From Terracidiphilus sp. (GTDB lineage: Bacteria; Acidobacteriota; Terriglobia; Terriglobales; Acidobacteriaceae): a stretch of 64,000 nt of DNA. The stretch spans positions 11,335-75,334 of the forward strand of contig DATKTQ010000317.1 of the NCBI GenBank assembly GCA_035531055.1, in the 5' to 3' direction. Positions 2,407 through 59,747 of the stretch are shown piece after piece; positions within the stretch are counted from its first letter, which is position 1, and every line of letters begins with the position of its first letter. The position numbers were made by a program, and so were the translations under genes. Under the pieces are notes generated by a model, which saw only the letters and a list, made by a program, of their open reading frames with translations, was not told the DNA's origin and made no database searches.

Positions 2407-2412
2407 GCGCAG

Positions 2413-11547: not shown

Positions 11548-11701
11548 GGGAGAGGTCCAATCATCGAGGTGCCCGCCGCCGTTTACTGATGCGGTAGCTA
11601 CCATAGAGTTATTGGCTTAATAGTTAACACGTGCTGTGGGGAAATGCAAGGGAAAATGCGAAGCGGATTGAAGGGCCGGCCGGAGGCAGACGGCGGGGCG
11701 C

Positions 11702-12451: not shown

Positions 12452-12651
12452 GAGTGACCTCAATGCGGGTGATGCACGTGGGAGCATTCCGCGCGGGGAA
12501 GACGGCTCCGGCGGGCCTGCGGAGCATTGTACTCGAAGGCGGTTGTGCGGAGGGAGACGAGGAAGCGGGGAGGGTATGTGCTGAGCAGCCCGGAGTGGAT
12601 GCGGGGATTCGCGAAGGTGTATGAGACGCGGCTGGTGCGGGCGCCAGCGGC

Positions 12652-12852: not shown

Positions 12853-12903
12853 GGAGATATTGTCGCGGATTTGCGGCCGTTGTGCCGCGGGTAGAATGAA
12901 GCC

Positions 12904-13554: not shown

Positions 13555-13568
13555 CGTAACGCGGCGCG

Positions 13569-13934
13569 TTATGTGGCGTGCATGAGGCTGAACAGAAGTA
13601 CGGCGAGCACGATGAGGCTGACGACGACGTACATGCGGTCGCGCTCCAGCGCGAAGCCGGCGACGGCCATGGCGACGCGGGCAACGGGCGTGGCGATGAG
13701 CAGCAGAAGGCCGAATTGCATGAGGCCCAGGCTGTCTCCATGCATGGCGGAACGGAAGATGCCGGGCAGGGTGCGCACCTCCGCGCCGCCGGGCGCGAAG
13801 ACTCCGTAATGGACCGGCTGCGCATGGAAGCGGAAAAGGTAAAGCACGCCGCCGGAGAAGACGACCGCCGCGGCCAGCAGGACGCCGGCGCGGAGCAGGT
13901 TGCCGATGATGTTCTCAAGATGGCGATCGTCCAT
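13569..13934 (-). CDS. DUF1634 membrane protein
   Basis: 121-aa, 3-4 TM protein directly downstream of a TauE/SafE gene, which is the usual pairing. The LLLIATPVARVAMAVAGFALERD pattern matches my memory of DUF1634. Confidence 0.65.
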   Translation of the reverse strand: MDDRHLENIIGNLLRAGVLLAAAVVFSGGVLYLFRFHAQPVHYGVFAPGGAEVRTLPGIFRSAMHGDSLGLMQFGLLLLIATPVARVAMAVAGFALERDRMYVVVSLIVLAVLLFSLMHAT

Positions 13935-13939
13935 GCTCG

Positions 13940-14779
13940 CTAGACCTTTCCCAGAAATCCATTGACGATCATTTCAATGGCGAGTGCAAAGACCACGACG
14001 CCGAAGACGATGCGCAGGGTGCGAACACGGGCGTGGACGAGGACGCGGGTGCCGAGAAAGGCTCCGGCGAGGACGCCGAGCATGACGGGCATGGCGACGC
14101 GCGGGTCAATGTATCCGCGGCTGAGGTACACGCCGGCGCTGGCCGCGGCGGTTACACCGATCATGAAGTTGCTGGTGGTGGTGGAGACCTTGAAGGGAAT
14201 CTTCATGGCGCGGTCCATGGCGATGACCTTGACGGCGCCGGAGCCGATGCCGAGGAGGCCGGAGAGCGCGCCCGCACCGAACATGAGGCCGAGGCCGGTG
14301 GGAACATTGTGGACGCCGTATTCCTGGCGCTTGTCGAGGAGCGGATAGTCGCCGCCGAGGCGAAAGAAGCGGGCGAGTCGGTCCGACTGGATGGCGGGAC
14401 CGTGATCGGGCTCGGAACTGGCGAGGGACTGCCAGCCGGACTGAAGGAGCACGAGGCCAAAGATGATGGCGAGGATGTGGGTGCTGGTGAAGGCGGCGAG
14501 ATATGCGCCCAAGACCGCGCCGACGGTGGTGGCGATTTCAAGCAGCATGCCGATGCGGATGTTGGAGAAGCCTTCCTTGACGTAGGCGGCGGCTGCGCCA
14601 GAGGAGGTGGCAATGACCGAGACGAGGGAGGCTCCGATGGCGTATTTGATGTCTACGCCAAGCACCAGAGCCAGGACGGGCACGACAACCACGCCGCCGC
14701 CCAAGCCGGTGAGCGCGCCGAGGAAGCCGGCGACGGCGGCGACAACCCAGACAACGAGAGTGAAATCGAGCGCGGACAT
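13940..14779 (-). CDS. sulfite/anion exporter TauE/SafE family membrane protein
   Basis: 279-aa polytopic protein with two Gly-rich repeats (GFLGALTGLGGGVVVVP and GALSGLLGIGSGAV) typical of TauE/SafE permeases. Confidence 0.85.
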   Translation of the reverse strand: MSALDFTLVVWVVAAVAGFLGALTGLGGGVVVVPVLALVLGVDIKYAIGASLVSVIATSSGAAAAYVKEGFSNIRIGMLLEIATTVGAVLGAYLAAFTSTHILAIIFGLVLLQSGWQSLASSEPDHGPAIQSDRLARFFRLGGDYPLLDKRQEYGVHNVPTGLGLMFGAGALSGLLGIGSGAVKVIAMDRAMKIPFKVSTTTSNFMIGVTAAASAGVYLSRGYIDPRVAMPVMLGVLAGAFLGTRVLVHARVRTLRIVFGVVVFALAIEMIVNGFLGKV

Positions 14780-14836
14780 GAGGTCGAAGGTGGAGCTGGA
14801 CCTCTCAAGTATAGCGTGCGGCGGAGAGCAGCGTGA

Positions 14837-16141
14837 TTACCGCGGTGGGGTCACGGGCCGTTGGGCGAAGGCGGGGAAGAGGGTTCGGATGAGGTCGTCG
14901 CGGAGGGTGAGGCGCAGGTCGGAGTTGGGGTCGGGCTCGGTGTTTGACTCCGGATGCAGGGTGGAAGCGGGCGAGGGCGCGCCGGTGTCTGTGGTGTTGA
15001 CGGCGAGGATGGCGGCGGTGTGGCCGGCGGGATCGATCATCAATTCAGAGGAAAAGCCGCCCTGGTCGCCGTCGTGAAAGACGTAGCGATGACCTTGGAG
15101 ATGGAGGACGAAGAAGCCGAGACCCATGAGAGGCTGCGCGCCGCCGGGGCCGGAGGTGTATGGCGTGGGCGGCTGGCCGCGCTGGAGGGCGGGCAGGACG
15201 CCGGTCCAGGCTTCCTGCAGCGAACTGCGTTTGAGGACGATGTTGTCGACGGGGTTGGCTGGGTCGCCGATGAGGAAGCGGGCGTATTTGACCATGTCTG
15301 GGATGGGCGCTTTGAGCCCGCTGTTAGAGGTGGTGATGCCGGTGTCGAAGTTGAACGGCTGGGGGGTGAGGGTGGCGCCGGAGCGGAGGTAACTGGCGGA
15401 GACGTGCGGCTCAAGGTAATAGGGCGAGCGGTCAAAGTAGCTTTCGGTCATGCCGAGGGGCATGAGGATGTTCTTGGTGATGTAGACCTCGAAGTCGTCG
15501 CCGGAGAGGCGCTGGATGATTTGGCCGAGGAAGACGTAGCCGAGGTTGGAGTAGCTCCACTGGGTTCCGGGCTTGAAGGCGATGTGGGTGTAAGGGAGCA
15601 TGGCGGCGACCTGGGACCAGCGGGTGGGCTCGAAGGGCTGCCAGTTGCAGTCTTTGGGGTCGTCGCAGTCCCAGGGCCAGGTGGAGTTGCGGAAACCGGC
15701 GCTGTGGGTGAGCAGGTCGCGGATGGTGATCTGGTCGACGGGACCGAAGGCGTCGTGGATCTGGCGGAGCTCGGGGACATAGCGGACGGCCGGGTCGTTG
15801 AGCGAGAGCAGGCCGCGGTCGCGGAGCTGGAAGATGGCGATGGAGGTGAAGGTCTTGGTGATGGAGGCCCAGTTGTAGGCGGTGTGGTCGTCCACACGGC
15901 GGCTGGGTTGGAGGCGGGCACTGCCGAAGGAGAATTCGGTGGCGGGTTGCCCGGCGTGGACGAAGGCGAATCCGCCGCCGACGATGTGGTGGCGGGAGAG
16001 GACGGCTTCGAAACGGGCGTGGAATGCATCCAATTGGGCAGAGTCGTGCTGGGCAGAAGCTGGCTGGGCAGAGGTGGGAACGGAGACGAGCGCGCAGGCG
16101 AGGACGAGCAGCGTGGGCGCGAGCAGGAGACGGAAGCGCAT
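14837..16141 (-). CDS. beta-lactamase-fold serine hydrolase (secreted)
   Basis: The ATG at 16141 opens the signal peptide MRFRLLLAPTLLVLACALVSVPTSAQP. The SxxK motif reads ASITKTF and the YxN motif reads WSYSNLGY. Confidence 0.85.
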   Translation of the reverse strand: MRFRLLLAPTLLVLACALVSVPTSAQPASAQHDSAQLDAFHARFEAVLSRHHIVGGGFAFVHAGQPATEFSFGSARLQPSRRVDDHTAYNWASITKTFTSIAIFQLRDRGLLSLNDPAVRYVPELRQIHDAFGPVDQITIRDLLTHSAGFRNSTWPWDCDDPKDCNWQPFEPTRWSQVAAMLPYTHIAFKPGTQWSYSNLGYVFLGQIIQRLSGDDFEVYITKNILMPLGMTESYFDRSPYYLEPHVSASYLRSGATLTPQPFNFDTGITTSNSGLKAPIPDMVKYARFLIGDPANPVDNIVLKRSSLQEAWTGVLPALQRGQPPTPYTSGPGGAQPLMGLGFFVLHLQGHRYVFHDGDQGGFSSELMIDPAGHTAAILAVNTTDTGAPSPASTLHPESNTEPDPNSDLRLTLRDDLIRTLFPAFAQRPVTPPR

Positions 16142-16213
16142 GGGGAAATGATACTGAATAGACGGCGATGGCGCCGGTGGTGCTATAGTCTGCGAGTTTC
16201 TTGAGATGCCGGA

Positions 16214-17935
16214 ATGGCGGAGTCTATGAAGCTGGAAAACACGCTGCGATCCGCATGGGATCCGCAATCTGCCAGGGCGAAGGCGAACGGCGAGGCGCTA
16301 CGGGCGCAGCTGGCGGAGTTGCGCGGGACGGAGGAGAGGATTCGGCAGGGCGGCGGCGCAAAGGCCGCGGCGGCGCAGCATGCCAAGCACCGGCTGACGG
16401 TGCGGGAGCGGCTGAAGCTGCTGCTGGACGAAGGTACGGAGCTGATGGAACTGGGGCTTTGGGCGGCGCACGGCATGTATGAGGAATATGGCGGAGCGCC
16501 GGGCGCGGGCGTGGTGACGGGCTTGGGGCGCGTATGCGGACGGCAGTGCATGGTGATTGCGAACGATGCGACGGTGAAAGCCGGCGCGTTTTTTCCCATG
16601 ACGGCGAAGAAGGTGCTGCGGGCGCAGACGATTGCCATGGAGAATCGGCTGCCGACGCTCTACCTGGTGGACTCCTCCGGTGTGTTTCTGCCGTTGCAGG
16701 AGGATGTGTTTCCGGATACGGACGACTTCGGAAGGATTTTTCGCAACAACGCGGTGATGAGCGCGCGAGGGATTCCGCAGATTACGGCGATTCTGGGCAT
16801 GTGTGTGGCGGGCGGCGCGTATTTGCCGGTGATGACCGACACGGTGCTGATGACGGAGGGGTCGGGATTGTTTCTTGCGGGGCCTTCGCTGGTGCAGGCG
16901 GCAATTGGGCAGCGGACGAGCGCGGAGGAGTTGGGCGGCGCGGCGATGCATGCCGAGGTTTCCGGGACGGTGGACTTTAAGGAGCCGGACGACCAGCACT
17001 GCCTCAGGCGGATGCGGTCACTGGTGGACAAGCTGGGCGAGCAGCCGGCGGGCGAGGTGTTTTCGCGAGTTGCCTACGATGCGGCGAAGGATGGGCCGCT
17101 GTATGCGGCGGAGGATCTCTACGGAATGCTGGATCCGGCGCCCGGGGCGACGAATATCTACGACATGCGTGAGGTGATTGCGCGGCTGGTGGACCGCAGC
17201 GAGTGGGATGAGTACAAGGCGGAGTTTGGGCGCACGGTGCTGTGCGGGTATGCGCGGATTGGCGGGCACGCGGTGGGCGTGGTGGCCAACCAGAAGATGA
17301 ACCAGATGCAGACGGTGGCGACGGGGCCAGCCGCGGGCGCCAAGCGGATTGAAGTGGGCGGGGTGATCTATACGGAAGGCGCGCAGAAGGCGGCACGCTT
17401 CATTCTGGACTGCAACCAGAGCCTGGTGCCGCTGGTGTTTCTGCACGACGTGAACGGCTTTATGGTGGGCAAGGACGCGGAGTGGTCGGGGATTATTCGT
17501 GGGGGGGCCAAAATGGTTTCGGCAGTGGCGACGAGCGTGGTGCCGAAGATTACGGTGATTGTGGGCGGGAGCTTTGGCGCGGGGCATTATGCGATGTGCG
17601 GCAAGGCGTATGATCCGCGATTTGTGTTTGCGTGGCCCACGGCGCGCTACGCGGTGATGAGCGGCGCGTCTGCCGCGGCGACGCTGGCCGAGGTGCGTGC
17701 GAGGCAACTGGAGCGCGGAGGCAAAGTACTTTCCGAGGCGGAGAAGACGGCGATGCGCGAGGAGATTGTGGCGACGTATGACGCGCAGGCGGACCCGCGC
17801 TACGGCGCGGCGCGACTGTGGATCGACGCGATCATCGACCCGGCGAAGACGCGGGAGGCGCTGATGACGGCGTTGGAGGCGTGCGCGCGGAATACGGAGA
17901 TTGCGCGCTTCAATCCGGGTGTGATGCAGACCTGA
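16214..17935 (+). CDS. mccB: acyl-CoA carboxylase carboxyltransferase (beta) subunit, most likely methylcrotonyl-CoA carboxylase beta
   Basis: Carboxyl_trans family over the full length (HRLTVRERLKLLLDEGT, MCVAGGAYLPVMTD, VVANQ...GGVIY). Genomic context with acyl-CoA dehydrogenase, HMG-CoA lyase and enoyl-CoA hydratase supports the leucine pathway. Confidence 0.85.
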   Translation: MAESMKLENTLRSAWDPQSARAKANGEALRAQLAELRGTEERIRQGGGAKAAAAQHAKHRLTVRERLKLLLDEGTELMELGLWAAHGMYEEYGGAPGAGVVTGLGRVCGRQCMVIANDATVKAGAFFPMTAKKVLRAQTIAMENRLPTLYLVDSSGVFLPLQEDVFPDTDDFGRIFRNNAVMSARGIPQITAILGMCVAGGAYLPVMTDTVLMTEGSGLFLAGPSLVQAAIGQRTSAEELGGAAMHAEVSGTVDFKEPDDQHCLRRMRSLVDKLGEQPAGEVFSRVAYDAAKDGPLYAAEDLYGMLDPAPGATNIYDMREVIARLVDRSEWDEYKAEFGRTVLCGYARIGGHAVGVVANQKMNQMQTVATGPAAGAKRIEVGGVIYTEGAQKAARFILDCNQSLVPLVFLHDVNGFMVGKDAEWSGIIRGGAKMVSAVATSVVPKITVIVGGSFGAGHYAMCGKAYDPRFVFAWPTARYAVMSGASAAATLAEVRARQLERGGKVLSEAEKTAMREEIVATYDAQADPRYGAARLWIDAIIDPAKTREALMTALEACARNTEIARFNPGVMQT

Positions 17936-18003
17936 GGAAGTTGCGAATTCAAAGAAGCAGAGCGAAAGAGCAAGTAAGCGGAAACAACCGGTGACCAAGG
18001 AGT

Positions 18004-19200
18004 GTGGCGATGGGCGTTGCGTTGGAGACCGTGGAAAGTTTGTATCCCTTTGTGCTGACGGAAGAGCAGGAATTGCTGCGGCGAGAGATTCAGGAGTTTG
18101 CCGCGCGCGAGGTTGCGCCACACGTGATGGCGTGGGACGAAGCCAGCGAATTTCCGCTGGCGACGGTGAAGAAGCTGGGGGAGATGGGCCTGCTGGGCGT
18201 GATTGTTCCGGCGGAGTACGGCGGCGCGGGGCTGACTTATGTGGACTACGTGCTGGCGATTGAAGAGCTGTCGGCGGTGGACGGATCGCTGGGACTGACG
18301 ATGGCGGCGCATAACTCGCTGGGAACGAATCATATTTTTCTGGCGGGGAATGAGGAGCAGCGGCGAAAGTATCTGCCACGGCTGGCCAAGGGAGAGTGGC
18401 TGGCGGCGTGGGGGCTGACGGAGCCGGGTTCCGGCTCTGACGCGAGCAATGCGCGGACAACTGCGGAGCGCAAGGGCGACCGTTACATTTTGAACGGGAA
18501 TAAGACGTTCATCACCAACGGGCACTATGCCGACGTGACGATGGTGATTGCGGTGACAGACCGGAGCAAGGGTACGCATGGACTCTCGGCGTTTGTGGTG
18601 GAGAAGGGGACGAAGGGATTCCGGCCGGGCAAGAAGGAGAACAAACTGGGCCTGCGCGCGAGCGATACGAGCGAACTGATTTTTGAGGACTGCGAGATTC
18701 CGGCGGAGAACCTGCTGGGCGCCGAGGGCGAGGGCTTTGTGGATGCGATGCGGGTGCTGGACGGCGGACGCATCTCGATTGCCGCGCTCTCGCTGGGCAT
18801 TGGGCGCGGAGCGCTGGATGCGGCGCTGAAGTATGTGAAGGAGCGGCGGCAGTTCGGCAAGGCAATTGCGGAGTTTCAGGGGATCCAGTGGAAGTTGGCG
18901 GACATGGCCACGGAACTGGATGCGGCGCGGCTGCTGACGCAGCGGGCGGCGGTGCTGAAGGACGCGGGCCGGAGAGTGACGCGGGAGTCGGCGATGGCAA
19001 AGCTGTTTGCCAGCGAGACGGCGGTGCACATTTGCAACGAAGCAGTGCAACTGTTTGGCGGTTACGGCTTCATCAAGGACTATCCAGCGGAGAAGTTTTA
19101 TCGCGACGTGAAGCTGTGCACGATTGGCGAGGGGACGAGCGAGATTCAGCGGATGGTGATTGCGCGGGAGATTCTGAAGGTGCATCCGTCCCGCGGATGA
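18004..19200 (+). CDS. acyl-CoA dehydrogenase (short/branched-chain type)
   Basis: Full-length ACAD with [32 protein letters not shown] and a C-terminal catalytic-base context [17 protein letters not shown]. Substrate (isovaleryl versus butyryl) cannot be decided from the sequence by eye. Confidence 0.9.
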
Positions 19201-19228
19201 GCGGCGGGATGGCAGAGCGGGAGAGTCG

Positions 19229-20125
19229 ATGGGAGATGCCGTCAAGATTGTGGAGTGTCCGCGGGATGCGTGGCAGGGCCTGCCCGGGCTGATTCCGGCG
19301 GAGCGCAAGGCGGCGTACCTGCGCCGGCTGCTGGATGCGGGGTTTCGGCAGTTGGATTCGGTGAGTTTTGTGTCCCCGGCGGCGGTTCCGCAGATGGCGG
19401 ACTCTGAACGGGTGCTGGAGCTGCTGGAAGCGCCTGCGGACGCGGAGATTCTGGGCATTGTGGTGAATGCGCAGGGGGCCGAGCGCGCAATTCGCACCGG
19501 TAGAGTGCAGACGCTGGGGTTTCCGTATTCCATCTCGACAGAATTTTTGAGGCGCAATCAGCGGCAGACGCAGGCGGAGGCGCTGCAGGTGCTGCAGATG
19601 ATTGTGGAACAGGCAAGTGGAGCGGGGTTGAACGTGGTGGCGTATGTTTCGATGGCCTTCGGCAATCCCTACGGGGAGGCGTGGAGCGCGGAGGCCGCCG
19701 CCGAGGCGTGCGATGCGCTGCTGGACGCGGGTGTGCGGGAGATTTCGCTGGCGGACACGGTGGGCGCAGCGACCGGGGAGCGAGTTGCCGAGACGGTGGC
19801 GACGGTGCGGTCGGCGCATGCGGAAGCAGAGATCGGAGTGCACCTGCATGCGCGGCGAAGCGAGGCGGCTGCACGGATTCTGGCGGCGTATGATGCGGGT
19901 TGCCGCAGATTTGACGCGGCGCTGGGCGGGCTGGGTGGATGTCCGTTCGCGCAGGATGAGATGGTGGGAAATATTCCGACGGAGTTGCTGTTGGCGACGC
20001 TGGCGGAGCGGACGGCGGAGCTACCGGGTGTGCGCGATGTGGACGGACTGTGCCGGGAGAGCGCGGAGATTGCCCGCGAGTTTGGCAAGCGCGAGCCGCT
20101 GCGGGATGCGGAAGGCAAACGCTGA
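19229..20125 (+). CDS. hydroxymethylglutaryl-CoA lyase (DRE-TIM metallolyase family)
   Basis: N-terminal VKIVECPRDAWQG corresponds to the EVGPRDGLQ motif. HLHARRSEAAARILAAYDAGCRRFDAALGGLGGCPFA matches the metal and Cys region of HMG-CoA lyases. Confidence 0.8.
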   Translation: MGDAVKIVECPRDAWQGLPGLIPAERKAAYLRRLLDAGFRQLDSVSFVSPAAVPQMADSERVLELLEAPADAEILGIVVNAQGAERAIRTGRVQTLGFPYSISTEFLRRNQRQTQAEALQVLQMIVEQASGAGLNVVAYVSMAFGNPYGEAWSAEAAAEACDALLDAGVREISLADTVGAATGERVAETVATVRSAHAEAEIGVHLHARRSEAAARILAAYDAGCRRFDAALGGLGGCPFAQDEMVGNIPTELLLATLAERTAELPGVRDVDGLCRESAEIAREFGKREPLRDAEGKR

Positions 20126-45257: not shown

Positions 45258-45460
45258 TTCATCTGCGGCTGTTAACAAACCGTAAAGAAACGTAGCTTCC
45301 AAGGTCGCAGTCCAACCGTTGGGCGCCAGCGACTCACGGCACAACTTGAGCCCCAGTTTTTCCAGACGCTGTAAGAGTCCACAGGGCCGAATCTCAGGGT
45401 GATCGCAAGCCCCGGATAGGCAACGGATTCAACCATTTTTTGCCGACCGAGAGGAATCCG

Positions 45461-48400
45461 ATGAGCGAGGCCAATTTTCCCACTACCGCCACTTCCGTCC
45501 AAACCCACTTTAACCAGAGCGGACTTACATTTAGCCGCCGCTTTTCCCGCGAGGGCGTTTCGCCTTACGACGAGGTGCAGTGGGAGCGGCGCACCGCGCT
45601 GATTTCCGACAGCAAGGGCAACACGATTTTTGAGCAGAAGGACGTGGAGGTGCCGCTGGACTGGTCGATGACGGCGACCAACATTGTGGCCTCAAAATAT
45701 CTGCACGGGCAGGTGGGAGCCCCGGAGCGGGAGACCGGCGTTCGGCAGCTGGTGGAGCGCGTGGCGGAGACGGTGCGCGACTGGGGTATTACCGGCGGAT
45801 ATTTTGCTTCGGCGCAGGATGCGGCGGTGTTCTATGACGAGCTGGCATCCATGCTGCTGACGCAGCGGGTGGCCTTCAACTCGCCGGTATGGTTCAACGT
45901 GGGTTGTGACCGGCTGGAGCCGCAATCGGACGGGCAGAACTGGCACTGGAATCCGGAGACGGGCGGGGTGCAGTTCTCGGCTACTGGCTATCGCAATCCG
46001 CAGTGCTCGGCCTGCTTTATCAACGCAGTGGACGACTCGCTGGACTCGATTCTGACGCTGGCTAAGACTGAGGGCATGTTGTTCAAGTGGGGCTCGGGCA
46101 CGGGCACCAATCTTTCTTCGATTCGAGGATCGATGGAGTTGCTTTCCGGCGGCGGCCAGGCCTCCGGCCCGCTGAGCTTCATGCGCGGGTTTGATGCGTT
46201 TGCGGGGGTCATCAAGTCCGGCGGTAAGACGCGCCGCGCGGCCAAGATGGTGATTCTGAACGCGGACCACCCGGACATCATGGACTTTATTGATTGCAAG
46301 GCCAAGGAAGAGGCCAAGGCCTTTACGCTGATCAAGGCCGGGTATGACGGATCGGGTCCGGACTCAGAGGCGTATTCGTCCATTTTCTTCCAGAACGCAA
46401 ACAACTCTGTTCGCGTGAGTGACGAATTCATGCGCGCCTATGAACGCGACGGCGACTTTACCACCCGCACGGTGAAGGGCAGTCAGCCCGTAAAGACCTA
46501 CAAGGCGCGCGAAATCATGCGCAAGATTGCCGAGGCGACGTGGCTCTGCGGCGACCCAGGCATGCAGTTCGACACGACCATCAACAAGTGGCACACGAGC
46601 AAGAACACGGCGCGCATCAACGCGTCGAATCCGTGTTCGGAGTACATGTTCCTCGACAATTCGGCCTGCAACCTGGCCAGTTTTAACCTGCTGAAGTTTG
46701 TGACGCCGGCGGGCACGTTCGACATTGCTGCCTATCGCCACGCAATTTCTGTGGTGATTACGGCGATGGAGATTCTGGTGGATAACTCCGGATATCCGAC
46801 CGAGGCGATTGCCAAGAATTCGCATGACTACCGGCCGCTGGGCCTGGGCTATGCGAACCTGGGCGCGCTGCTGATGGCCTTCGGTCTTCCGTATGACTCG
46901 GTGGCGGGACGCGACCTGGCGGGAGCGCTGACAGCCATCATGTGCGGTCAGGCGTATTTGCAGTCCGCGATTCTGGCGGCAGGCGGCCAGCCCATTGCCT
47001 CGGCGACGGAGCTGACGGCGAGCGTGGAGCGGCAGGGCGGCGCATGCCCGGGCTTCTATGTGAACCGTGAGCCGTTCCTGGACGTGATCCGGATGCATCG
47101 GGCCGAGGTGAACAACATCGGCAAGTCGCGCGTGATCACGGAGCCGTTTGTGGTGCCGCAGCTGGATGCACTGATTGAGGCGAGCCGCGAGTGCTGGGAC
47201 ATGGCTCTGCTTTATGGCGAGCGCTTTGGATATCGCAACTCGCAGACCACGGTGCTGGCGCCGACGGGCACCATCGGCTTCATGATGGATTGCGACACCA
47301 CAGGAATTGAGCCGGATCTTGCGCTGGTGAAGTACAAGAAGCTGGTGGGCGGCGGCATGATCAAGATTGTGAACAATACTGTGCCCGCCGCGCTGTTCAA
47401 GCTGGGCTACAACAACGACCAGGTGAACGCGATTGTGAGCTATATTGATGCGACCGGCACAATCGAAGGCGCGCCGGGCATCAAGCCGGAGCACCTGTCG
47501 GTGTTCGACTGCAGCTTTAAGCCTGCCAAGGGTACGCGCTCCATTCAATACATGGGGCACATCAAGATGATGGCGGCGGCGCAGCCGTTCCTGTCTGGAG
47601 CCATCTCAAAGACGGTGAATCTGCCGCACGAAGCAACGGTGGAAGATGTGGCCGAGGCCTATGCCGAAAGCTGGCGCCAGGGCATCAAGGCGGTGGCCAT
47701 TTACCGTGATGGATCCAAGGGCACGCAGCCGCTGAACACCAGCCTTGACGCCAAGCGGGAGCCTTCCGCGCTGGATGCCGCCGGTAGTCGCATCCTTGCG
47801 CAGTTGGCCGCGGGGTATGCCGCTGCAGATGCGGACCTGAAGACCCTGGAAGCCAAGATTGGCGATAAGCTGGAAGTCTCCTCCAAGCAGATGGTGGCCG
47901 CGGCCGTCGCGTTCCAGGAGAGCCTTGAGGAGATGGCGAAGGCGGCAGCAGCGCCCATTCTTCAGACAACGGCATTCGAGGCTCTCCAAGAGAACGCACA
48001 GGACCTGAACGCGCCTCCACGGGCGGTGCGCCATCGGCTGCAGGAGGAACGCGCCTCAATGACGCACAAGTTCTCCATTGCGGGGCATGAGGGCTATATC
48101 ACCGTAGGCTTGTATCCCAATGGCCAGCCCGGCGAGATTTTCATCCGCATGGCGAAGGAAGGCTCCACGGTATCCGGCTTGATGGATGCCTTTGCCACGT
48201 CGATCTCGTTGGCGCTGCAGCACGGAGTTCCGTTGCGCGTTCTGTGCGAGAAGTTCGCCCATACGCGCTTTGAGCCCTCGGGCTGGACGGGCAATGAGCA
48301 GATTGGCTATGCGAAGAGCCTGATGGACTACCTCTTCCGCTGGCTCAATCTACGTTTCCTTTCCGGCACGCAGTTGACGCTGTTCGCGGGGCTGGCCCCG

Positions 48401-48793
48401 CAGGTGCCACAGCTGCCCGCTGCCCCCACGCTGCTTGCTGAGCAGGATGCGGAAGAAGAGGTGGGCAACATGTCCCAGGGGCAGTTGGCAAAGCTTGCCG
48501 AAGAGGTGGCGCGAAAGCTGAACCAGATGAGCTCGCATGCTCCGAGTATGGGTGGCACGTCGGCGCCGGCCGGAGGCATTGCGCCGGAGATTCAGGCAAG
48601 CGGCACGGCAGCGCCGAGCCCTTCGCACGGTCCTGCGCTGCAGGATCGCGGCCTCTACCACGCGGCCGACGCGATGCGCGACATGTACGAGATGGGCGAC
48701 GCGCCCAGTTGCAGTACGTGCGGCGCCATCATGGTGCGCAACGGCAGCTGCTATCGCTGCATGAGCTGCGGATCCACGAGCGGCTGCAGTTAG
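45461..48793 (+). CDS. nrdJ: adenosylcobalamin-dependent (class II) ribonucleotide reductase
   Basis: FSRRFSREGVSPYDEVQWE is the N-terminus. The active-site loop is NPCSEYMFLDNSACNLAS, with TVLAPTGTIGF. The conserved C-terminal block is THKFSIAGHEGYITVGLYPNGQPGEIFIRMAKEGSTVSGLMD. The terminal Cys-rich zinc-finger tail reads CSTCG...CYRCMSCG. The ATG at 45461 follows GAGAGGAA. Confidence 0.95.
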   Translation: MSEANFPTTATSVQTHFNQSGLTFSRRFSREGVSPYDEVQWERRTALISDSKGNTIFEQKDVEVPLDWSMTATNIVASKYLHGQVGAPERETGVRQLVERVAETVRDWGITGGYFASAQDAAVFYDELASMLLTQRVAFNSPVWFNVGCDRLEPQSDGQNWHWNPETGGVQFSATGYRNPQCSACFINAVDDSLDSILTLAKTEGMLFKWGSGTGTNLSSIRGSMELLSGGGQASGPLSFMRGFDAFAGVIKSGGKTRRAAKMVILNADHPDIMDFIDCKAKEEAKAFTLIKAGYDGSGPDSEAYSSIFFQNANNSVRVSDEFMRAYERDGDFTTRTVKGSQPVKTYKAREIMRKIAEATWLCGDPGMQFDTTINKWHTSKNTARINASNPCSEYMFLDNSACNLASFNLLKFVTPAGTFDIAAYRHAISVVITAMEILVDNSGYPTEAIAKNSHDYRPLGLGYANLGALLMAFGLPYDSVAGRDLAGALTAIMCGQAYLQSAILAAGGQPIASATELTASVERQGGACPGFYVNREPFLDVIRMHRAEVNNIGKSRVITEPFVVPQLDALIEASRECWDMALLYGERFGYRNSQTTVLAPTGTIGFMMDCDTTGIEPDLALVKYKKLVGGGMIKIVNNTVPAALFKLGYNNDQVNAIVSYIDATGTIEGAPGIKPEHLSVFDCSFKPAKGTRSIQYMGHIKMMAAAQPFLSGAISKTVNLPHEATVEDVAEAYAESWRQGIKAVAIYRDGSKGTQPLNTSLDAKREPSALDAAGSRILAQLAAGYAAADADLKTLEAKIGDKLEVSSKQMVAAAVAFQESLEEMAKAAAAPILQTTAFEALQENAQDLNAPPRAVRHRLQEERASMTHKFSIAGHEGYITVGLYPNGQPGEIFIRMAKEGSTVSGLMDAFATSISLALQHGVPLRVLCEKFAHTRFEPSGWTGNEQIGYAKSLMDYLFRWLNLRFLSGTQLTLFAGLAPQVPQLPAAPTLLAEQDAEEEVGNMSQGQLAKLAEEVARKLNQMSSHAPSMGGTSAPAGGIAPEIQASGTAAPSPSHGPALQDRGLYHAADAMRDMYEMGDAPSCSTCGAIMVRNGSCYRCMSCGSTSGCS

Positions 48794-54388: not shown

Positions 54389-54622
54389 GGCGAAGCCGGG
54401 GAACTGAGAAGCTGTCGCTTCAGTAGAACACTTGGAGTAAGTCAGACACGGATGGATGGTGGCGGCAAGCCCGCTCCACGTGACCTTGTTGCGAATGGTC
54501 ACTTTAATTTCTGCAATCGCTTCTCCCGGGCACCATGCTTTCACCTGCATCAAAATCCCACATCCCATTGCAGACGGCGAAGCGGCGCAATCGACTGGTA
54601 CAAGGTATATGCTTCATGGAGA

Positions 54623-56212
54623 ATGAGCAACGTGCCAAGGATGAAGGAAAGCGCCGCCCCGTCGGTTTTGCCGCAGCCGCGGGCAAGGAAAGATGCAGAC
54701 TATGTCTTTTACGAGTTGACGCGCAGCATCTGTCCCCGGTGCAGGCGCGTCATGGATGCGAAGATTCTGCTGCGCGAGAACAAGGTCTACATGACAAAGC
54801 GCTGCCCGGCCTGCGGACCAATTGAGGCGCTTATTTACGGGGACGCCGAAGCCTATGTCCGCCTCGGCAAGTTCAACAAGCCGGGAACGATTCCGCTGGC
54901 TTACGGAACCGAGATTGTCGAGGGCTGCCCGCACGATTGTGGTCTCTGCCCTGACCATCAACAGCATGCATGCCTGGGCATCATTGAGGTGAACAGCGCC
55001 TGCAACATGGATTGTCCACTCTGCTTTGCGGATGCAAGGCCGGGCTTCAGCCTGACGCTGGAGGAAGTGGAGGCCATGCTGGAGGACTTTGTGCGCACGG
55101 AGGGCAAGCCGGAAGTGGTGCAGCTTTCCGGCGGAGAGCCCACCATCCATCCGCAAATCATCGAGTTTGTGGAGGCGGCCCGCAGGCGCGGTATTCCCTT
55201 CGTCATGATCAATACGAACGGCAAGCGAATCGCGCACGATGATCGCTTTTTGGAACAGTTGCAGGCCGCAGGGCCTTCCTTCTACTTCCAGTTTGACGGC
55301 TTTGATGCGGAGACCTACCGGGTGATTCGCGGAGACGCGAACCTTCTGGAGGAGAAGCTTCGCGCTCTGGATCGCCTTGCCTCGGCGGGCATGCATGTCA
55401 CGCTGGTACCCGCCATTGAGCGTGGCGTCAACGATCATGAGATTGGCCGCATCCTGGACTTTGCCATTCGGCATCTGGCGGTTCGCGGCGTCAACTTTCA
55501 GCCGGCATTCCACGCGGGCCGACACATGCACCACGACCCCATGCAGCGGATGACGATTCCCGACATCGTGCAATGCATCGAATCGCAAACCGGCGGAAAG
55601 TTCGTGGCCAGCGACTTTATTCCCGTCCCGTGCTGCTTTCCCACGTGCAACTCCGTAACCTATGCCTTCATCGACGGCGAAAAGGTGACTCCGCTCTCGC
55701 GCATCGTCAATGTCTATGACTATCTGGATTACATTACGAATCGCGTGATGCCGGACTTCAGCCTGGAGATCAAGAATGCGCTGGAGGGATTGTGGTCCTC
55801 GTCTTCCGTGTCGGGCTCGCAAAAGTCGGCCGAGCAGCTTCGCGTGTCCTGCCAGGCTTGCGGCCTGCCGGAGAGCCTGACGATCGGCGACATCGCCCAG
55901 AACATGCTGATGGTGATGCTGCAGGACTTTATGGATCCGTGGACCTTCAACCAGAAGAATCTGATGAAGTGTTGCAAGGAGTTTTTGCTCCCCGGGGGCA
56001 AGCAGATCCCGTTTTGCGCGTACAACTCAGTGGGCTACCGGGAGCAGGCGCGCGCCCAGCTGGAGGCGATGGAGCCGGAACGCAGACTGGCCAGGCATGA
56101 GGGAAGGGACTATCAGCCGAGGCCGGTTGTTTTTGACTTTTCCGCAAGCGCGGAAGCTGCGGTGTTGCCCATTGTGCAGGCGCCGGCGTCTGCGACCGGA
56201 GAGCGAGGCTGA
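54623..56212 (+). CDS. multi-cluster radical SAM protein with N-terminal rubredoxin-like Cys4 (tetraether/membrane-spanning-lipid-synthase-like architecture)
   Basis: The motifs in order are CPRC-x20-CPAC, CPHDCGLCPDHQQHAC, then the canonical radical-SAM CNMDCPLC. The C-terminus has Cys clusters PCCFPTC, SCQAC, KCCKEF and FCAYN. Start is uncertain. Candidates are ATG 54623, GTG 54632 (GGAGA 9 nt upstream) and ATG 54641. Confidence 0.85.
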   Translation: MSNVPRMKESAAPSVLPQPRARKDADYVFYELTRSICPRCRRVMDAKILLRENKVYMTKRCPACGPIEALIYGDAEAYVRLGKFNKPGTIPLAYGTEIVEGCPHDCGLCPDHQQHACLGIIEVNSACNMDCPLCFADARPGFSLTLEEVEAMLEDFVRTEGKPEVVQLSGGEPTIHPQIIEFVEAARRRGIPFVMINTNGKRIAHDDRFLEQLQAAGPSFYFQFDGFDAETYRVIRGDANLLEEKLRALDRLASAGMHVTLVPAIERGVNDHEIGRILDFAIRHLAVRGVNFQPAFHAGRHMHHDPMQRMTIPDIVQCIESQTGGKFVASDFIPVPCCFPTCNSVTYAFIDGEKVTPLSRIVNVYDYLDYITNRVMPDFSLEIKNALEGLWSSSSVSGSQKSAEQLRVSCQACGLPESLTIGDIAQNMLMVMLQDFMDPWTFNQKNLMKCCKEFLLPGGKQIPFCAYNSVGYREQARAQLEAMEPERRLARHEGRDYQPRPVVFDFSASAEAAVLPIVQAPASATGERG

Positions 56213-56214
56213 CG

Positions 56215-57000
56215 ATGGAAACGCCCGAAGTGAAGCAGTGCTGTGCGGCTTTTTACGGCAGCGATCTGGCAAAGATGCTGCTCGGGGAGAGCTTTCATCC
56301 CGGCGGCGCGCGGCTGACCGAGCGCCTGGGGCAGCTGCTTCAACTGGACGAGCGGTCGCACGTGCTCGAAGTGGCCTGCGGGCGCGGGACCAGCGCATTG
56401 CATCTTGCAGAGCGCTTTGGTTGCAGTGTTCTCGGGATCGACTTGAGTGCGGAAAATATTGCCGTTGCCGCGGAAGAGGCGGATCGACGCGGTTTGAACG
56501 AATCGGTGCAGTTCCAGCGGGGAGATGCGGAGTTAATTCCCGTGGAGGACACGAGCTTTGATGCGATTGTGTGTGAGTGCGCCTTTTGCACGTTTCCTGG
56601 CAAGCCGGTCGCGGCGCTGGAGTTTCACCGCGTATTGCGCCCGGGCGGGAGAGTGGGCCTGAGCGACCTGACGCGAACGCCTGCGCCCATTCCGGAGCTT
56701 GAGGGACTGCTGGCGTGGGTTGCCTGCATTGCGGATGCGCTGCCTGCCGAGCAGTACGCGGCCGTGCTGCAGGAAGCGAATTTCTTGGTGGAATCCGTCG
56801 AAGACCACAGCGAGGCCTTGGTGGAGATGGTGCGCCAGGTTCAGGGTCGCCTGCTGGGCGCGGAAGTGCTGGCAGGTCTGGAGCAGTTGAGCCTGCCCGG
56901 CGTAGACTTTGAAGCTGCGCGAAAGTTTGCGGAGGCCGCGCTGCGAGCCACGCGAGGGGGGGCGCTCGGGTACCTGGTCCTCATCGCAAGAAAGGCCTGA
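56215..57000 (+). CDS. class I SAM-dependent methyltransferase with conserved Cys pairs
   Basis: It starts 3 nt after the radical-SAM stop, with GAGG 6 nt upstream. SAM motif I is VLEVACGRGTS, with GIDLS, FQRGDAE and RVLRPGGRVGLSD. The N-terminus has KQCCAAFY and the core has IVCECAFCTF. Confidence 0.85.
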   Translation: METPEVKQCCAAFYGSDLAKMLLGESFHPGGARLTERLGQLLQLDERSHVLEVACGRGTSALHLAERFGCSVLGIDLSAENIAVAAEEADRRGLNESVQFQRGDAELIPVEDTSFDAIVCECAFCTFPGKPVAALEFHRVLRPGGRVGLSDLTRTPAPIPELEGLLAWVACIADALPAEQYAAVLQEANFLVESVEDHSEALVEMVRQVQGRLLGAEVLAGLEQLSLPGVDFEAARKFAEAALRATRGGALGYLVLIARKA

Positions 57001-57117
57001 TGCCGTCTCGCGGAGGGCTCCGGCCGGGTCTGGAGGCTTGAGTCGACTAATGGCAGCGGAACTGCGCTATCCTTGACGCGGCGAATCCAAGCCGCCTGAG
57101 TGCACACGGAGCCAGTG

Positions 57118-57597
57118 ATGGGCGAATACGCGCTGAATGTAAACGGAGAGAGCAAACGCGTGATTGCTCCCGCAGATGAGTCGCTGCTCTTTGTCCTGCG
57201 CAACCGGCTGGACCTGACAGGAACCAAGTATGGCTGCGGAGAGGGGCAGTGCGGAGCGTGTACCGTTCTGGTGGATGGAAACCCGGTTCACTCCTGCCTG
57301 ATCCCAGTGAGCTCCGCCACGCAGGGCAAGATTCTCACCATCGAGGGGCTGGAGCAGCATGGCGAGCTGACGCCGGTACAGAGGGCCTTCATGGAGGAAG
57401 GGGCATTCCAGTGCGGCTATTGCACGCCGGGCATGATTCTGCGAGCTACGGCATTATTGCGGGAGACGAAGAATCCGGCGGTCGAGCAGATTACGCATGC
57501 GATGAATGGCAATCTCTGCCGCTGCGGAACCTATCCGCGCATTGTGGCGGCTGTGCGGCTTGCTGCCAAGATTGCTGGTGAGGGAGGCGGCCGATGA
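57118..57597 (+). CDS. (2Fe-2S)-binding small subunit of a molybdopterin hydroxylase (IorA/aldehyde-oxidoreductase type)
   Basis: The plant-type cluster reads [12 protein letters not shown] and the second cluster reads [10 protein letters not shown]...CRCGTY. The ATG at 57118 follows GGAGCC. Confidence 0.9.
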
Positions 57598-59747
57598 AAC
57601 TTGGAATAGATGGAGATTCGCTGTCTTCCGCTCAGAGTGGCGGAATGCCACAATTGGACCGGCGAAGTTTTCTCCAGATGCTCGGCGGTGGTTTGTTCGT
57701 CTGTCTCGTGCCATCTGGCGTGCCGGCGCAGGAATCCGGCCGGAACTTCGGCAGCCATGAACTGCCCAAGGATTTGAGCGCCTGGTTGCATATTGCCGCA
57801 GACGGGCAGGTGACCGTCTTCACCGGTAAGGTGGAAGTGGGCCAGAACATTCGCACCTCGCTGGCGCAACAGGTGGCGGAGGAGCTGCGTGTCCCGTTCG
57901 GCGCGATCAGCATGGTTATGGGAGATACGGATCGTGTGCCCTGGGACATGGGAACTTTCGGCAGTCGCACTACGCCCACCATGGGTCCGGAGCTTCGCAC
58001 CATGGCAGCCGCAGCTCGAGAGTTGCTGCTGCAGATGGCCGCCAAGCGCTGGCATGTGGACAGCGGCAGACTCACCGCGGATGACGGAAAAGTGACGGAA
58101 ACAGGGACGGCACGCTCGATTGGCTACGGCGAGCTGACGCGCGGAGAAAAGCTGGTGAAAGTCGTCTCCGGCGAGGAACGGCTGACGCCGGCTGCGGCGT
58201 GGAGGATTGCCGGCACGCCGGTGGCCAAGGCCGGCGGGCGCGACTTTGTTACGGGAAAGCACAAATTTCCTTCGGACATCGTTCGCCAGGGAATGCAGTT
58301 CGGCGCCGTGCTTCGTCCGAAAGAGTTCCATGCCACGCTCGCGTCTTTGGACACGAGTGCTGCGGAGCGGATCCCGAATGTGCATGTGGTGCGCGACGGT
58401 GAGTTCGTGGGCGTGGTTGCTCCGGATGCTTACACTGCGCAGCAGGCGGTGGCAGCCATCCGGGCCCGTTGGAATGTGCCCAGCCAGCCTTCCAACGAGG
58501 GGATCTTCGCATATCTGAAGAAGAAGGCGGAGGCTGAACCCGGCGGAAGTCCCGAAGTCGAGACCGGGTCTGTTGCGCAAGCTCAGGCAGGCGCGGCGGT
58601 CAAGCTGGAGGAGCACTACACGGTGCAGTACATTGCGCACTCGCCGCTGGAGCCGCGGGCCGCGGTGGCGGAGTGGACCGGCGAAAAGCTGACGGTGTGG
58701 ACGGGAACCCAACGGCCGTTTGGCGTGCGCGACGAGCTGATGGAGGCTTTCCATCTTGCTCCCGGACAGGTTCGCGTGATTCAGCCGGATATGGGCAGCG
58801 GCTACGGCGGCAAGCACACGGGTGAGGCTGCCGTGGAGGCGGCGCGGCTGGCCAGGGCTGCCGGCAAGCCCGTGAAAGTGGTGTGGACCCGCGAGGAGGA
58901 ATTCACCTGGGCATATTTTCGTCCGGCGGGGCTGATGGAACTTCGCGCGGGCGCAGGGCACGATGGGACGCTGATTGCCTGGGAGCACCATAACTACAAC
59001 TCCGGGGCGGCCGCAATTGGCACTCCCTACCAGGTTGAGAATCAGCTCATTCAGTATCATCCGTCCGACTCGCCTTTGCGCCAGGGTTCGTATCGCGCGC
59101 TCGCGGCCACGGCGAATAACTTTGCCCGCGAGTCCCACATGGACGCGATGGCGCACCAGCTCGGAATGGATCCGCTGGAGTTTCGTCTGAAGAATTTGAA
59201 AGATGCGCGCCTGCGAGCCGTGTTTGAAGCGGCGGCGGAGAAGTTCGGCTGGCATCGCGCGAAGTCTGGGCCGCAGCGGGGATATGGCATTGCGGGTGGT
59301 GCGGACAAGGGCGGTTACATGGCTACGTGTGCCGAGATCGCCATTGATCCGACGGCAAAGACAATGCGCATTGTGCGTATGGTGCAGGCCTGGGAGTCCG
59401 GCGCTGTCGTCAACCCGGATGGGCTGCGGAATCAGGTGATGGGGGCGATGGTGCAAGGCATTGGAGGCGCTCTGTTTGAGCAGATTCTCTTTGCCGATGG
59501 GCGCATCCTGAATCCGCATTTTGCGGAGTATCGTCTGCCCCGCTTCCAGGACACTCCTCACATTGAAGTGGTGCTGCTGGACCGCAAAGACCTGCCTTCG
59601 GCCGGCGCGGGAGAGACCGGCCTCATTGGTGTGGCGCCGGCGGTGGGCAACGCCCTCTTTGCGGCGACGGGCTTCCGCGCGTGCCACCTGCCGATGGCGC
59701 CCAAGGCGCCCGCGCCGGGCATGGCGGCCCCGCCCTTCCAAAGTTGA
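57594..59747 (+). CDS. molybdopterin-binding large subunit (isoquinoline 1-oxidoreductase beta / aldehyde oxidoreductase type) with Tat signal
   Basis: ATGA overlap with the small subunit gene. The Tat motif reads [34 protein letters not shown] and [18 protein letters not shown] are typical of the xanthine-dehydrogenase-family Mo subunit. Confidence 0.9.

Follow-up and report, generated by a model that had tools for sequence, protein, structure and literature searches.

A bacterial radical-SAM enzyme of the GDGT-MAS/Tes superfamily forms a conserved two-gene module with a class I methyltransferase

In a 64,000-nucleotide stretch of a Terracidiphilus sp. genome (contig DATKTQ010000317.1, positions 11,335 to 75,334; referred to here as the window), a gene for an enzyme of the radical S-adenosylmethionine (SAM) type is followed almost immediately by a gene for a class I SAM-dependent methyltransferase. 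An earlier reading, made from the sequence only, had taken the radical-SAM protein for a candidate of the archaeal tetraether synthase type (Tes, or GDGT-MAS) and had left the methyltransferase as an unexplained partner. Does this pair make membrane-spanning lipids, or is its chemistry of another kind? We observed that the pair is an uncharacterised module, present across several soil bacterial phyla, in which a relative of Tes is locked to a methyltransferase with conserved cysteines. The features of the two genes on which the following analyses depend are given below.

54623..56212, + strand: radical-SAM enzyme of the GDGT-MAS/Tes superfamily, 529 aa (Pfam, NCBIfam, match to 7TOL, structural model)
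54707..54838, + strand: rubredoxin-like zinc ribbon CPRC-x20-CPAC (C37, C40, C61, C64; Pfam PF23545, residues 29-72)
54926..54973, + strand: N-terminal auxiliary [4Fe-4S] motif CPHDCGLCPDHQQHAC (C102, C106, C109, H112, C117; alignment to GDGT-MAS)
55001..55024, + strand: canonical radical-SAM cluster motif CNMDCPLC (C127, C131, C134; Pfam Radical_SAM, E = 9e-25)
55631..56017, + strand: Cys-rich C-terminal domain of the radical-SAM protein (alignment to 7TOL and alignment of 81 orthologues)
56198..56208, + strand: purine-rich Shine-Dalgarno-like stretch GGAGAGCGAGG within the 3' end of the radical-SAM gene, read from the sequence
56215..57000, + strand: class I SAM methyltransferase, 261 aa (Pfam Methyltransf_11/25/31; model with pLDDT 85.5)
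56239..56244, + strand: vicinal cysteine pair C9-C10 at the methyltransferase N-terminus (Cys in 72/74 and 73/74 orthologues)
56572..56589, + strand: CECAFC segment (residues 120-125) with the invariant E121-C122 (C122 in 74/74 orthologues; hhalign to CmArsM)
56716..56736, + strand: WVACIAD loop with C171 (73/74 orthologues; hhalign to CmArsM)

The cysteine motifs that had been pointed out in both proteins are all present where they had been placed. The start of the radical-SAM gene deserves a comment. Its frame is open for 57 codons further upstream (54452-54622), so that a naive longest-open-reading-frame (ORF) call gives 586 aa, and the gene call of the database protein (P0001) starts three codons later than ours, at the GTG at 54632. 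The ORF from 54452 is probably over-extended, as the orthologue alignments and the database gene call favour a start at 54623 or 54632. The gene ends with the TGA at 56210-56212 and the ATG of the methyltransferase follows at 56215. The Shine-Dalgarno-like stretch lies inside the upstream gene, as had been pointed out, and the spacer between stop and start is 2 nt.

We compared the radical-SAM protein with GDGT-MAS at the levels of domain, sequence and fold. Its Pfam domains are Zn_ribbon_HMPTM and Radical_SAM. A phmmer search against the PDB matched it to GDGT-MAS (7TOL) with E = 4.8e-78, in two stretches that cover nearly the whole protein, and the two proteins are 30% identical over about 500 aligned columns. 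The AlphaFold model (pLDDT 86.7, pTM 0.87) was matched by Foldseek to 7TOM/7TOL with template-modelling (TM) scores of 0.76/0.81 over ∼500 columns (E = 4.7e-43 for 7TOM), and the next fold reached a TM score of only 0.34. The radical-SAM protein belongs to the GDGT-MAS/Tes superfamily. To this extent the Tes-type membership proposed earlier is supported by Pfam, by phmmer and by Foldseek, and the comparison of a predicted model with the GDGT-MAS crystal structure, which had been suggested as a check, came out in its favour.

The cofactor sites could be followed through the same alignment to 7TOL. The CPRC-x20-CPAC motif aligns with the rubredoxin-like motif of GDGT-MAS, C9X2C12X20C33X2H36 (PMC9433317); its fourth ligand is a Cys (C64) in the window protein and a His in 70 of the 81 orthologues. 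C102, C106, C109 and H112 align with C73, C77, C80 and a His of GDGT-MAS and are invariant in all 81 orthologues, and the canonical CNMDCPLC begins nine residues after CPHDCGLCPDHQQHAC. The C-terminal domain has four cysteine groups, namely PCCFPTC (C337, C338, C342), SCQAC (C410, C413), KCCKEF (C450, C451) and FCAYN (C465), of which C342, C450, C451 and C465 fall on cysteines in the C-terminal cluster region of Tes. The features common to GDGT-MAS and the window protein are thus the rubredoxin-like ribbon, the CX3CX2C + His cluster, the radical-SAM cluster and three to four C-terminal cluster cysteines, and on this alignment the protein carries all four Tes metal-site motifs. With the exception of C64, every one of the listed motif cysteines of the radical-SAM protein is invariant in the 81 orthologues, which come from six phyla.

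The protein departs from Tes in several ways. With the NCBIfam Tes model (NF045702) it scored 331.2 bits against a cut-off of 450, with a good fit only over residues 33-340; seven true Tes representatives scored 481-638 bits with the same model. With the model for TrsS (NF045646), a second family of the superfamily that we characterised via NCBIfam scores and two real loci (L082 and L083), the alignment was full-length and colinear and the score was 325.8 bits against a cut-off of 490; a true TrsS representative (P0208) reached 607 bits. Nine other nearest cluster representatives that were tested also fell below both the Tes and the TrsS cut-offs. In the alignment to 7TOL, Gln434 stands at the position of Tes Met439 and Phe454 at that of Tyr459. 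Met439, a labile ligand of the C-terminal cluster, and Tyr459, which adjoins the substrate's terminal carbon, are completely conserved in 1000 archaeal homologues (PMC9433317). The Met439 equivalent is kept by the true Tes representatives, and the position equivalent to Tyr459 varies among the 81 orthologues. The loss of these two residues marks lineage, not chemistry. Conversely, C117, C337, C338, C410 and C413 are extra cysteines, invariant in the 81 orthologues and replaced by another residue or a gap in the true Tes representatives; the C-terminal four of them (C337, C338, C410 and C413) are missing or gapped in the TrsS representatives also. Hence the expectation that the cysteine groups would align with the Tes cluster ligands held for the rubredoxin-like, N-terminal and radical-SAM motifs and for the C-terminal cluster region; Met439 and Tyr459 are replaced, and five cysteines are left over.

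An exhaustive HMMER search for homologues of the radical-SAM protein gave 749 clusters (50% identity) at E < 1e-30, and 88 full-length representatives were placed in a neighbor-joining tree with 100 bootstraps. The core clade that holds the window protein excluded the Tes and TrsS anchors in 100/100 bootstraps, the Tes anchors were split from the window clade and from TrsS in 99/100, and TrsS split off in 98/100. By the scores and the tree, the radical-SAM protein is not a Tes orthologue but a member of a separate bacterial clade. In the specific form of a Tes orthologue, the earlier suggestion was not supported (331 bits against 450, and a clade of its own). Unlike archaeal Tes, the window protein is bacterial, is distributed patchily across phyla and has a methyltransferase partner.

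We examined the last of these differences in a genome scan for orthologues of the radical-SAM gene, which yielded 80 loci with 50-80% identity. Genes in the fetched loci were called from ORFs, and for six loci the gene calls of the collection back them. In 74 of 81 distinct loci, and in every phylum sampled, the next gene downstream on the same strand is a homologue of the methyltransferase; the phyla are Acidobacteriota, Chloroflexota (Ktedonobacteria, Dehalococcoidia/SAR202, Anaerolineae and Thermomicrobiales), Actinomycetota (Streptomyces, Kitasatospora, Actinomadura, Spirillospora, Haloechinothrix and Solirubrobacterales), Dormibacterota, Armatimonadota and Verrucomicrobiota. Overlaps of 4 nt between the two ORFs are seen at 18 distinct orthologous loci. 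Among the seven loci without an adjoining methyltransferase, at least five are from Anaerolineae or Dehalococcoidia and have an Lgt homologue beside the radical-SAM gene (in one of them, L045, the Lgt gene takes the place of the methyltransferase, 9 nt past the radical-SAM stop), and in at least one further case the locus is cut by the end of the contig. All gene families besides the methyltransferase are found in 25 loci or fewer. The radical-SAM gene has in the methyltransferase an obligate partner, and the two form a self-contained two-gene module; the pair is thus conserved as a unit in other genomes, as the sequence-only reading had asked.

A single-chain fusion points the same way. P0385 (661 aa), a relative of TrsS, has a radical-SAM part followed by a methyltransferase part; the latter matches the window methyltransferase with E = 4e-17 and carries the HVGG...LT and E-C motifs. 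This protein serves as a Rosetta-stone link for the radical-SAM/methyltransferase pair. A second apparent fusion, a triple one in the ORF 7959-11441 of L062, was not counted, as the genes are separate in the sister locus L068; the in-frame read-through in L062 is probably a chance or assembly effect in high-GC DNA.

Between phyla the radical-SAM proteins are 63-69% identical, and these cross-phylum identities suggest that the pair may have spread horizontally. The acidobacterial form is very common in metagenomes, where the 120 best matches are all 75-83% identical. Cultivable hosts include Streptomyces vastus, Kitasatospora hibisci, Dictyobacter alpinus and Haloechinothrix aidingensis, and with only two genes the module is testable.

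The methyltransferase partner has conserved cysteines of its own. The residues invariant across the 74 orthologues include C9, C10, H28-P-G-G, E121-C122 and C171, the cysteines being present in 72-74 of 74. We aligned the family profile by hhalign with CmArsM, whose sequence as used here is identical to that of PDB 4KW7, and found that C122 pairs with ArsM C174 and C171 with ArsM C224, the As(III)-binding cysteines of that enzyme. The likeness to ArsM, described as loose in the sequence-only reading, is therefore more specific than it had claimed. The N-terminal region, including the invariant CC pair and the C44/C72 region, does not align with ArsM; the invariant HPGG stands near the expected position of the ArsM GCG by visual comparison only, hhalign having left this region unaligned. 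Resemblance to ArsM thus consists of the class I fold, the cysteines at the C174/C224 positions and an N-terminal cysteine pair; the C-terminal lid is of the RebM/PMT type, unlike ArsM domain III. From these alignments we judge that the protein is no member of the ArsM family and yet has a putative ArsM-like, thiol-lined pocket. JGI annotations label some of the orthologues 'arsenite methyltransferase' and others 'UbiE'.

In NCBIfam the methyltransferase comes closest to DVU_1556 (NF045667), with 136.2 bits against a cut-off of 155, and the order of DVU_1556 first and arsenite methyltransferase second holds for all 26 members tested. The nearest solved structures, by sequence and by Foldseek, are RebM/AtmM, MitM, TleD, SpnF, phosphoethanolamine N-methyltransferases (PMT) and prenyl-diphosphate C-methyltransferases. 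The profile searches that had been proposed as a check therefore gave a divided answer: Pfam confirmed the superfamily, and the NCBIfam scores for Tes, TrsS, DVU_1556 and ArsM all remained below their cut-offs. In one Terriglobia metagenome-assembled genome (MAG; L019, 9582-10368), the methyltransferase homologue lies in two ORFs (118 and 89 bits) beside an intact radical-SAM gene, and is either frameshifted or a pseudogene.

We compared the neighbourhoods of the 81 loci. Two kinds of genes recur. The first is connected with thiol redox. A class I flavoprotein disulfide reductase occurs near the pair in 25 of 81 loci from five phyla. It has an unusual C-(T/L)-W-T-G-C redox motif and lacks the C-terminal Cys pair of MerA; among solved structures mercuric reductases come closest to it (E = 2e-74), followed by lipoamide dehydrogenases. 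In Acidobacteriota the flavoprotein, an MFS transporter and the pair are arranged in operons or divergons (L004, L009, L084 and L085), the transporter being confined to this phylum and one Armatimonadota locus. An upstream, translationally coupled VKOR gene is present in L001/L008 and L086, and MauE, DsbD_TM, PrdB-like, thioredoxin-like and peroxiredoxin-like genes and DUF3179 are also recurrent. Examples of the flavoprotein are at the following positions.

L004, 6516-7940: flavoprotein disulfide reductase
L009, 4983-6407: flavoprotein disulfide reductase
L084, 2583-3995: flavoprotein disulfide reductase; about 20 other loci have it

The second kind is connected with phospholipids. Phospholipid enzymes adjoin the pair in 26 of 81 loci: Lgt is near it in 7 loci of three lineages, PlsY follows it in 8 loci, and atypical CDP-alcohol phosphatidyltransferases are near it in 11 loci of three phyla. 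The adjacency to Lgt, PlsY and the CDP-alcohol transferases was acquired independently in several lineages.

Arsenic and mercury genes are found at a few loci only. Two uncultured Actinomycetes MAGs have the most extended context.

L062, 7047-14407, and L068, 7047-14460: Lgt, radical-SAM enzyme, methyltransferase, ∼350-aa protein, ArsR, ArsI/CadI, ArsR, MIP channel, ArsC-like protein

The C-terminus of the ∼350-aa protein scores above the NCBIfam cut-off for 'arsenosugar biosynthesis-associated peroxidase-like protein' (AhpD-like), and its N-terminal ∼240 aa have no known domain. Elsewhere, a MIP channel and ArsR are near the pair in L009, an HMA-type P-type ATPase in L085, and MerA-type genes with a C-terminal Cys-Cys pair, identified by motifs only, in L015, L017 and L020 (HMA-type N-termini are visible on those of L015 and L020).

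What, then, does the module do? Architecture, fold, clade separation, cysteine invariance, gene linkage, fusion and neighbour statistics are observed; what the substrate is, which heteroatom takes part, in what order the steps run and what product results are matters that we infer. We tentatively propose that the radical-SAM enzyme activates a C-H bond of a lipid-like substrate, that sulfur, arsenic or selenium captures the resulting radical and that the partner methylates this heteroatom; we consider this possible, though less than probable. A retained and methylated carbon-heteroatom bond is in keeping with five observations: a Tes-like scaffold, extra invariant C-terminal cysteines, an obligate methyltransferase with a thiol-lined pocket, disulfide reductases that differ between lineages, and recurrent lipid-enzyme neighbours.

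In this scheme the radical-SAM cluster would generate a 5'-deoxyadenosyl radical, which would take a hydrogen from a hydrophobic substrate (most probably a glycerolipid tail), at a carbon that is not activated. The Cys-rich C-terminal site would hold a soft heteroatom, and this would catch the carbon radical in the manner of the first half of the Tes reaction; the candidates would be a cluster sulfide or persulfide, or thiolate-bound arsenic or selenium. No second radical would resolve the intermediate into a C-C bond, and the heteroatom would stay on the product. The methyltransferase would then methylate it, or would pre-form a methylated donor, to give a methylthio-, methyl-arsenic- or methyl-selenium-type lipid. 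Thiol-disulfide oxidoreductases, which vary by lineage (MerA-like flavoprotein, VKOR, DsbD or MauE), may re-reduce the cysteines. The GDGT-MAS mechanism itself has a bond from the carbon of the substrate to a cluster sulfur as an intermediate, and under limiting SAM a thiolated lipid is released (PMC9433317).

Sulfur is the most parsimonious heteroatom, and the chemistry has parallels. In the methylthiotransferases MiaB and RimO, and in LipA and BioB, sulfur of an auxiliary Fe-S cluster captures a carbon radical, and in the methylthiotransferases a SAM-derived methyl group ends on the captured sulfur. This likeness is a mechanistic analogy only: unlike MiaB/RimO, the window pair has no UPF0004 or TRAM domain in Pfam, methyl transfer would fall to a separate class I enzyme, and the proposed substrate is a lipid and not tRNA or protein. 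Arsenic or selenium is suggested by analogy, through the ArsM-like cysteine positions, the two known radical-SAM/ArsM pathways and the context of L062 and L068. The window pair resembles those pathways, ArsS/ArsM for arsenosugars and ArsL/ArsM for arsinothricin, in that a radical-SAM gene adjoins a methyltransferase gene, and such gene pairs are a hallmark of arsenosugar and arsinothricin synthesis (PMC12159101; PMC8552651). Neither an ArsS nor an ArsL family was among the top NCBIfam matches listed for the radical-SAM protein. A narrower version, in which a third radical-SAM + ArsM-type pathway uses a Tes-fold enzyme to join the terminal carbon of a lipid tail to arsenic, selenium or sulfur and the methyltransferase then methylates it, appears to us rather doubtful.

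Several observations weigh against the proposal of a retained, methylated carbon-heteroatom bond. We know of no report of methylthio- or arsenic-bearing membrane lipids from these bacteria. At the level of the whole protein, the methyltransferase is nearer to RebM/AtmM, MitM, TleD, PMT and the prenyl-diphosphate C-methyltransferases than to ArsM; ArsM is absent from the 50 best Foldseek matches of its model, and its second NCBIfam family, arsenite methyltransferase (PRK11873), reaches 94 bits, the cut-off being 263. A scan of the window genes found no ars or mer genes and no flavoprotein. Across the loci, ars/mer genes flank ∼6 of 81, some of them interrelated, which is not clearly above chance and is taken here as no more than a lead, and no cysteine desulfurase or other sulfur donor is among the conserved neighbours. 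Finally, the loss of Met439 and Tyr459 does not exclude C-C coupling, because the Tes variants M439A and Y459F are still active (PMC9433317).

The last point leads to the most serious rival, considered in the sequence-only reading and current in the literature, which is that the radical-SAM protein is a bacterial synthase of tetraethers or other membrane-spanning lipids. It would couple two iso-C15 tails to each other, tail to tail, to give precursors of iso-diabolic acid and glycerol dialkyl glycerol tetraethers of the branched type (brGDGTs), and the methyltransferase would modify a branch or the head group. The fold and the cofactor sites match GDGT-MAS, phospholipid enzymes adjoin the pair in about a third of the loci, the window is acidobacterial with its nearest homologues in Acidobacteriaceae, and the Tes variants at the two replaced residues are still active. 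Acidobacterial Tes homologues have also been proposed as brGDGT synthases (Zeng et al. 2022, PMC8941075; Halamka et al. 2022, PMC10087280). Against this stand the position of the protein outside the Tes clade and below the Tes cut-off, and the range of its orthologues, which occur with 50-68% identity in Streptomyces, Kitasatospora, Actinomadura, Ktedonobacteria, Dehalococcoidia/SAR202 and Dormibacterota. To our knowledge, membrane-spanning lipids have not been reported from any of these groups, and the distribution of the orthologues does not appear to track the known producers.

Of 14 acidobacteria that produce iso-diabolic acid, only 3 had Tes homologues in a published screen (PMC13159169); by its identity (30%) and E value (∼1e-78) to M. 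jannaschii GDGT-MAS the window protein should pass the criteria of that search, for which the published query was a different archaeal Tes. Moreover, methylation of a saturated carbon is not possible for a class I methyltransferase, tail-to-tail coupling gives no role to the four invariant pocket cysteines or to the thiol-redox neighbours, and no gms or grs genes lie near the pair, although the tes homologues that cluster with gms have them (PMC11214058). Mss of Thermotoga and Thermoanaerobacter, a radical-SAM enzyme that acts on lipid tails by a postulated Tes-like auxiliary-cluster mechanism (PMC13159169, PMC13459092), is described by its discoverers as only remotely related to Tes, was undetected in selected Acidobacteria genomes and is so far known only from anaerobes (PMC13159169); its comparison with the window protein is by published description only. 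We concluded that the pair probably does not make membrane-spanning lipids, and we hold the coupling of two tails to be unlikely.

Alternatively, the same radical carbon-heteroatom chemistry and methylation may take place on a soluble small molecule, from which a new low-molecular-weight thiol, a thioether or an organoarsenical would result; the flavoprotein would keep this product reduced and the MFS protein would transport it. The acidobacterial operons and divergons of transporter, flavoprotein, radical-SAM and methyltransferase genes fit this, and low-molecular-weight thiol systems typically have disulfide reductases of their own. The ars context of L062 and L068, the name 'arsenite methyltransferase' given by JGI to some orthologues and the precedents of ArsS/ArsM and ArsL/ArsM (PMC12159101; PMC8552651) are also in its favour. 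But a soluble substrate does not account for the retention of the whole GDGT-MAS architecture, including the C-terminal, lipid-side domain, or for the neighbourhood of Lgt, PlsY and CDP-alcohol transferases that arose independently in several lineages. The transporter occurs only in Acidobacteriota and at one Armatimonadota locus, and most loci are without ars genes (an ars context is present in only 2-3 of 81). We regard a small-molecule product as doubtful.

A methyl branch could also be made through an olefin. Here a lipid tail would first be desaturated or otherwise activated by the radical-SAM enzyme; C-methylation of the double bond by the methyltransferase would follow, in the manner of cyclopropane fatty acid (CFA) synthase, BfaB, TleD and the geranyl diphosphate (GPP) methyltransferase, and the flavoprotein would then reduce the methylene. 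TleD, the C-methyltransferases of GPP and farnesyl diphosphate (FPP), and the CFA-like SpnF and SpnL are among the structural neighbours of the window methyltransferase; there is a weak match to Pfam CMAS, and the flavoprotein is a frequent neighbour. The flavoprotein, however, is no enoate or methylene reductase: it has a conserved C-x4-C redox pair (CTWTGC), belongs to the class I disulfide reductases and is closest to MerA. Such chemistry would also leave unexplained why four cysteines are invariant and match the ArsM positions, and no olefin intermediate was found for Tes (PMC9433317). Such a route looks improbable.

A role in the maturation of a metallocofactor, similar to that of TrsS, appears more improbable still. 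The target would be a molybdenum hydroxylase, for example the enzyme encoded just downstream of the pair, and the pair would modify one of its ligands or put one in place.

57100-59747, + strand: two-subunit xanthine-dehydrogenase-family enzyme, 100 nt after the methyltransferase

This enzyme consists of a [2Fe-2S] subunit (Fer2, Fer2_2) and a 717-aa subunit, whose ORFs overlap by 4 nt (57594-57597). The larger subunit, which we take to be Mo-binding, has an N-terminal RRSFLQ twin-arginine-like motif. The position of these two subunits recalls the true TrsS clusters, which are as follows.

L082, 1-11335, and L083, 1-11339: TrsS cluster with a xanthine-dehydrogenase-family enzyme, ∼770-aa Fe-S flavoprotein, DUF7479, C_GCAxxG_C_C, XdhC, NTP_transf_3-HD, NifS-like aminotransferase (Aminotran_5), ∼105-aa ORF, TrsS, AMP-binding enzyme and His_Phos_1 phosphatase

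The TrsS cluster looks like a cofactor-maturation system, in which XdhC, a MobA/MocA-like NTP transferase and NifS-like and C_GCAxxG_C_C proteins accompany the hydroxylase. That of L083 also contains a DVU_1556-type methyltransferase, not adjacent to TrsS; ArsR-like, ArsD and ArsP genes lie just downstream of the L083 cluster. The window pair has in common with TrsS/DVU_1556 the superfamily and a class I methyltransferase with HPGG...LT and E-C motifs, but the DVU_1556-type methyltransferases are without the N-terminal CC pair and the WxAC cysteine of the window family. The window clade is separate from TrsS. The families of the TrsS context (XdhC, MocA/NTP_transf_3-HD, NifS-like and C_GCAxxG_C_C) were not among the recurrent neighbours of the 81 loci or the scanned window genes, although no dedicated search was made for them. 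None of the 81 other loci has a homologue of the two window subunits within 8 kb, and on this ground the downstream molybdenum hydroxylase was rejected as a conserved feature.

The pterin methylase suggested by the legacy JGI name '7,8-dihydro-6-hydroxymethylpterin dimethyltransferase' on many homologues has practically no credibility: the carrier bacteria are not methanogens, the name was merely inherited from MJ0619 together with a Pfam domain name, and we rejected it on the published evidence, as Lloyd et al. could not reproduce the activity and MJ0619 was shown to be GDGT-MAS (PMC9433317). The idea of a peptide made on the ribosome and modified after translation (RiPP) was also dropped, there being no conserved small ORF alongside the pair.

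The rest of the window is ordinary chromosome, with genes for MetH, a carboxyltransferase, an acyl-CoA dehydrogenase, a signal peptidase, AsmA and an H+-pyrophosphatase. The genes upstream of the pair, for an M20 peptidase and an ion-channel protein, are unrelated to it, and a 956-aa ORF downstream is presumably a glucan phosphorylase. One further ORF has an unusual C-terminus.

45440-48793, + strand: 1117-aa ORF with the Cys-rich tail CSTCGAIMVRNGSCYRCMSCGSTSGCS, preceded by a long low-complexity linker rich in Ala, Pro and Gln

We take this ORF to encode a class II ribonucleotide reductase. GC skew is unusually high and positive over positions 1-20000 of the window (0.18-0.30 in 2-kb windows) and is 0.0-0.15 over the remainder. 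An Rfam scan of the window and four loci gave only tRNAs, and a scan for promoters and terminators was uninformative.

The results bear first on how tetraether producers are recognised. The brGDGT lipids underpin palaeotemperature and pH proxies, and their biosynthesis in Acidobacteria is unresolved. Bacterial 'Tes homologues' serve as genomic markers of potential brGDGT producers (PMC8941075, PMC10087280, PMC11868695); as of 2025-2026 the literature reports no experimental test of any of them. The data described above show that at least one large and widespread clade caught by Tes-homologue searches is a distinct enzyme, which is locked to a Cys-lined methyltransferase and stands amid thiol-redox genes. 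Hits in this clade should therefore not be counted as evidence of tetraethers without a check at the level of the clade, and they may mislead searches for brGDGT producers. If the narrower pathway described above, with a Tes-fold enzyme and an ArsM-type partner, were true, tetraethers would have no connection with a large part of the bacterial 'Tes homologues' that serve as brGDGT markers, and the module would be the missing route to dimethylarsinoyl-, methylseleno- or methylthio-ended lipids in abundant soil bacteria. For the superfamily, the module may represent a new radical-SAM outcome on the Tes scaffold: the carbon-heteroatom intermediate would be retained and then methylated. Should that heteroatom prove to be arsenic or selenium, the module would bear on the way in which organisms link these elements to lipid chains.

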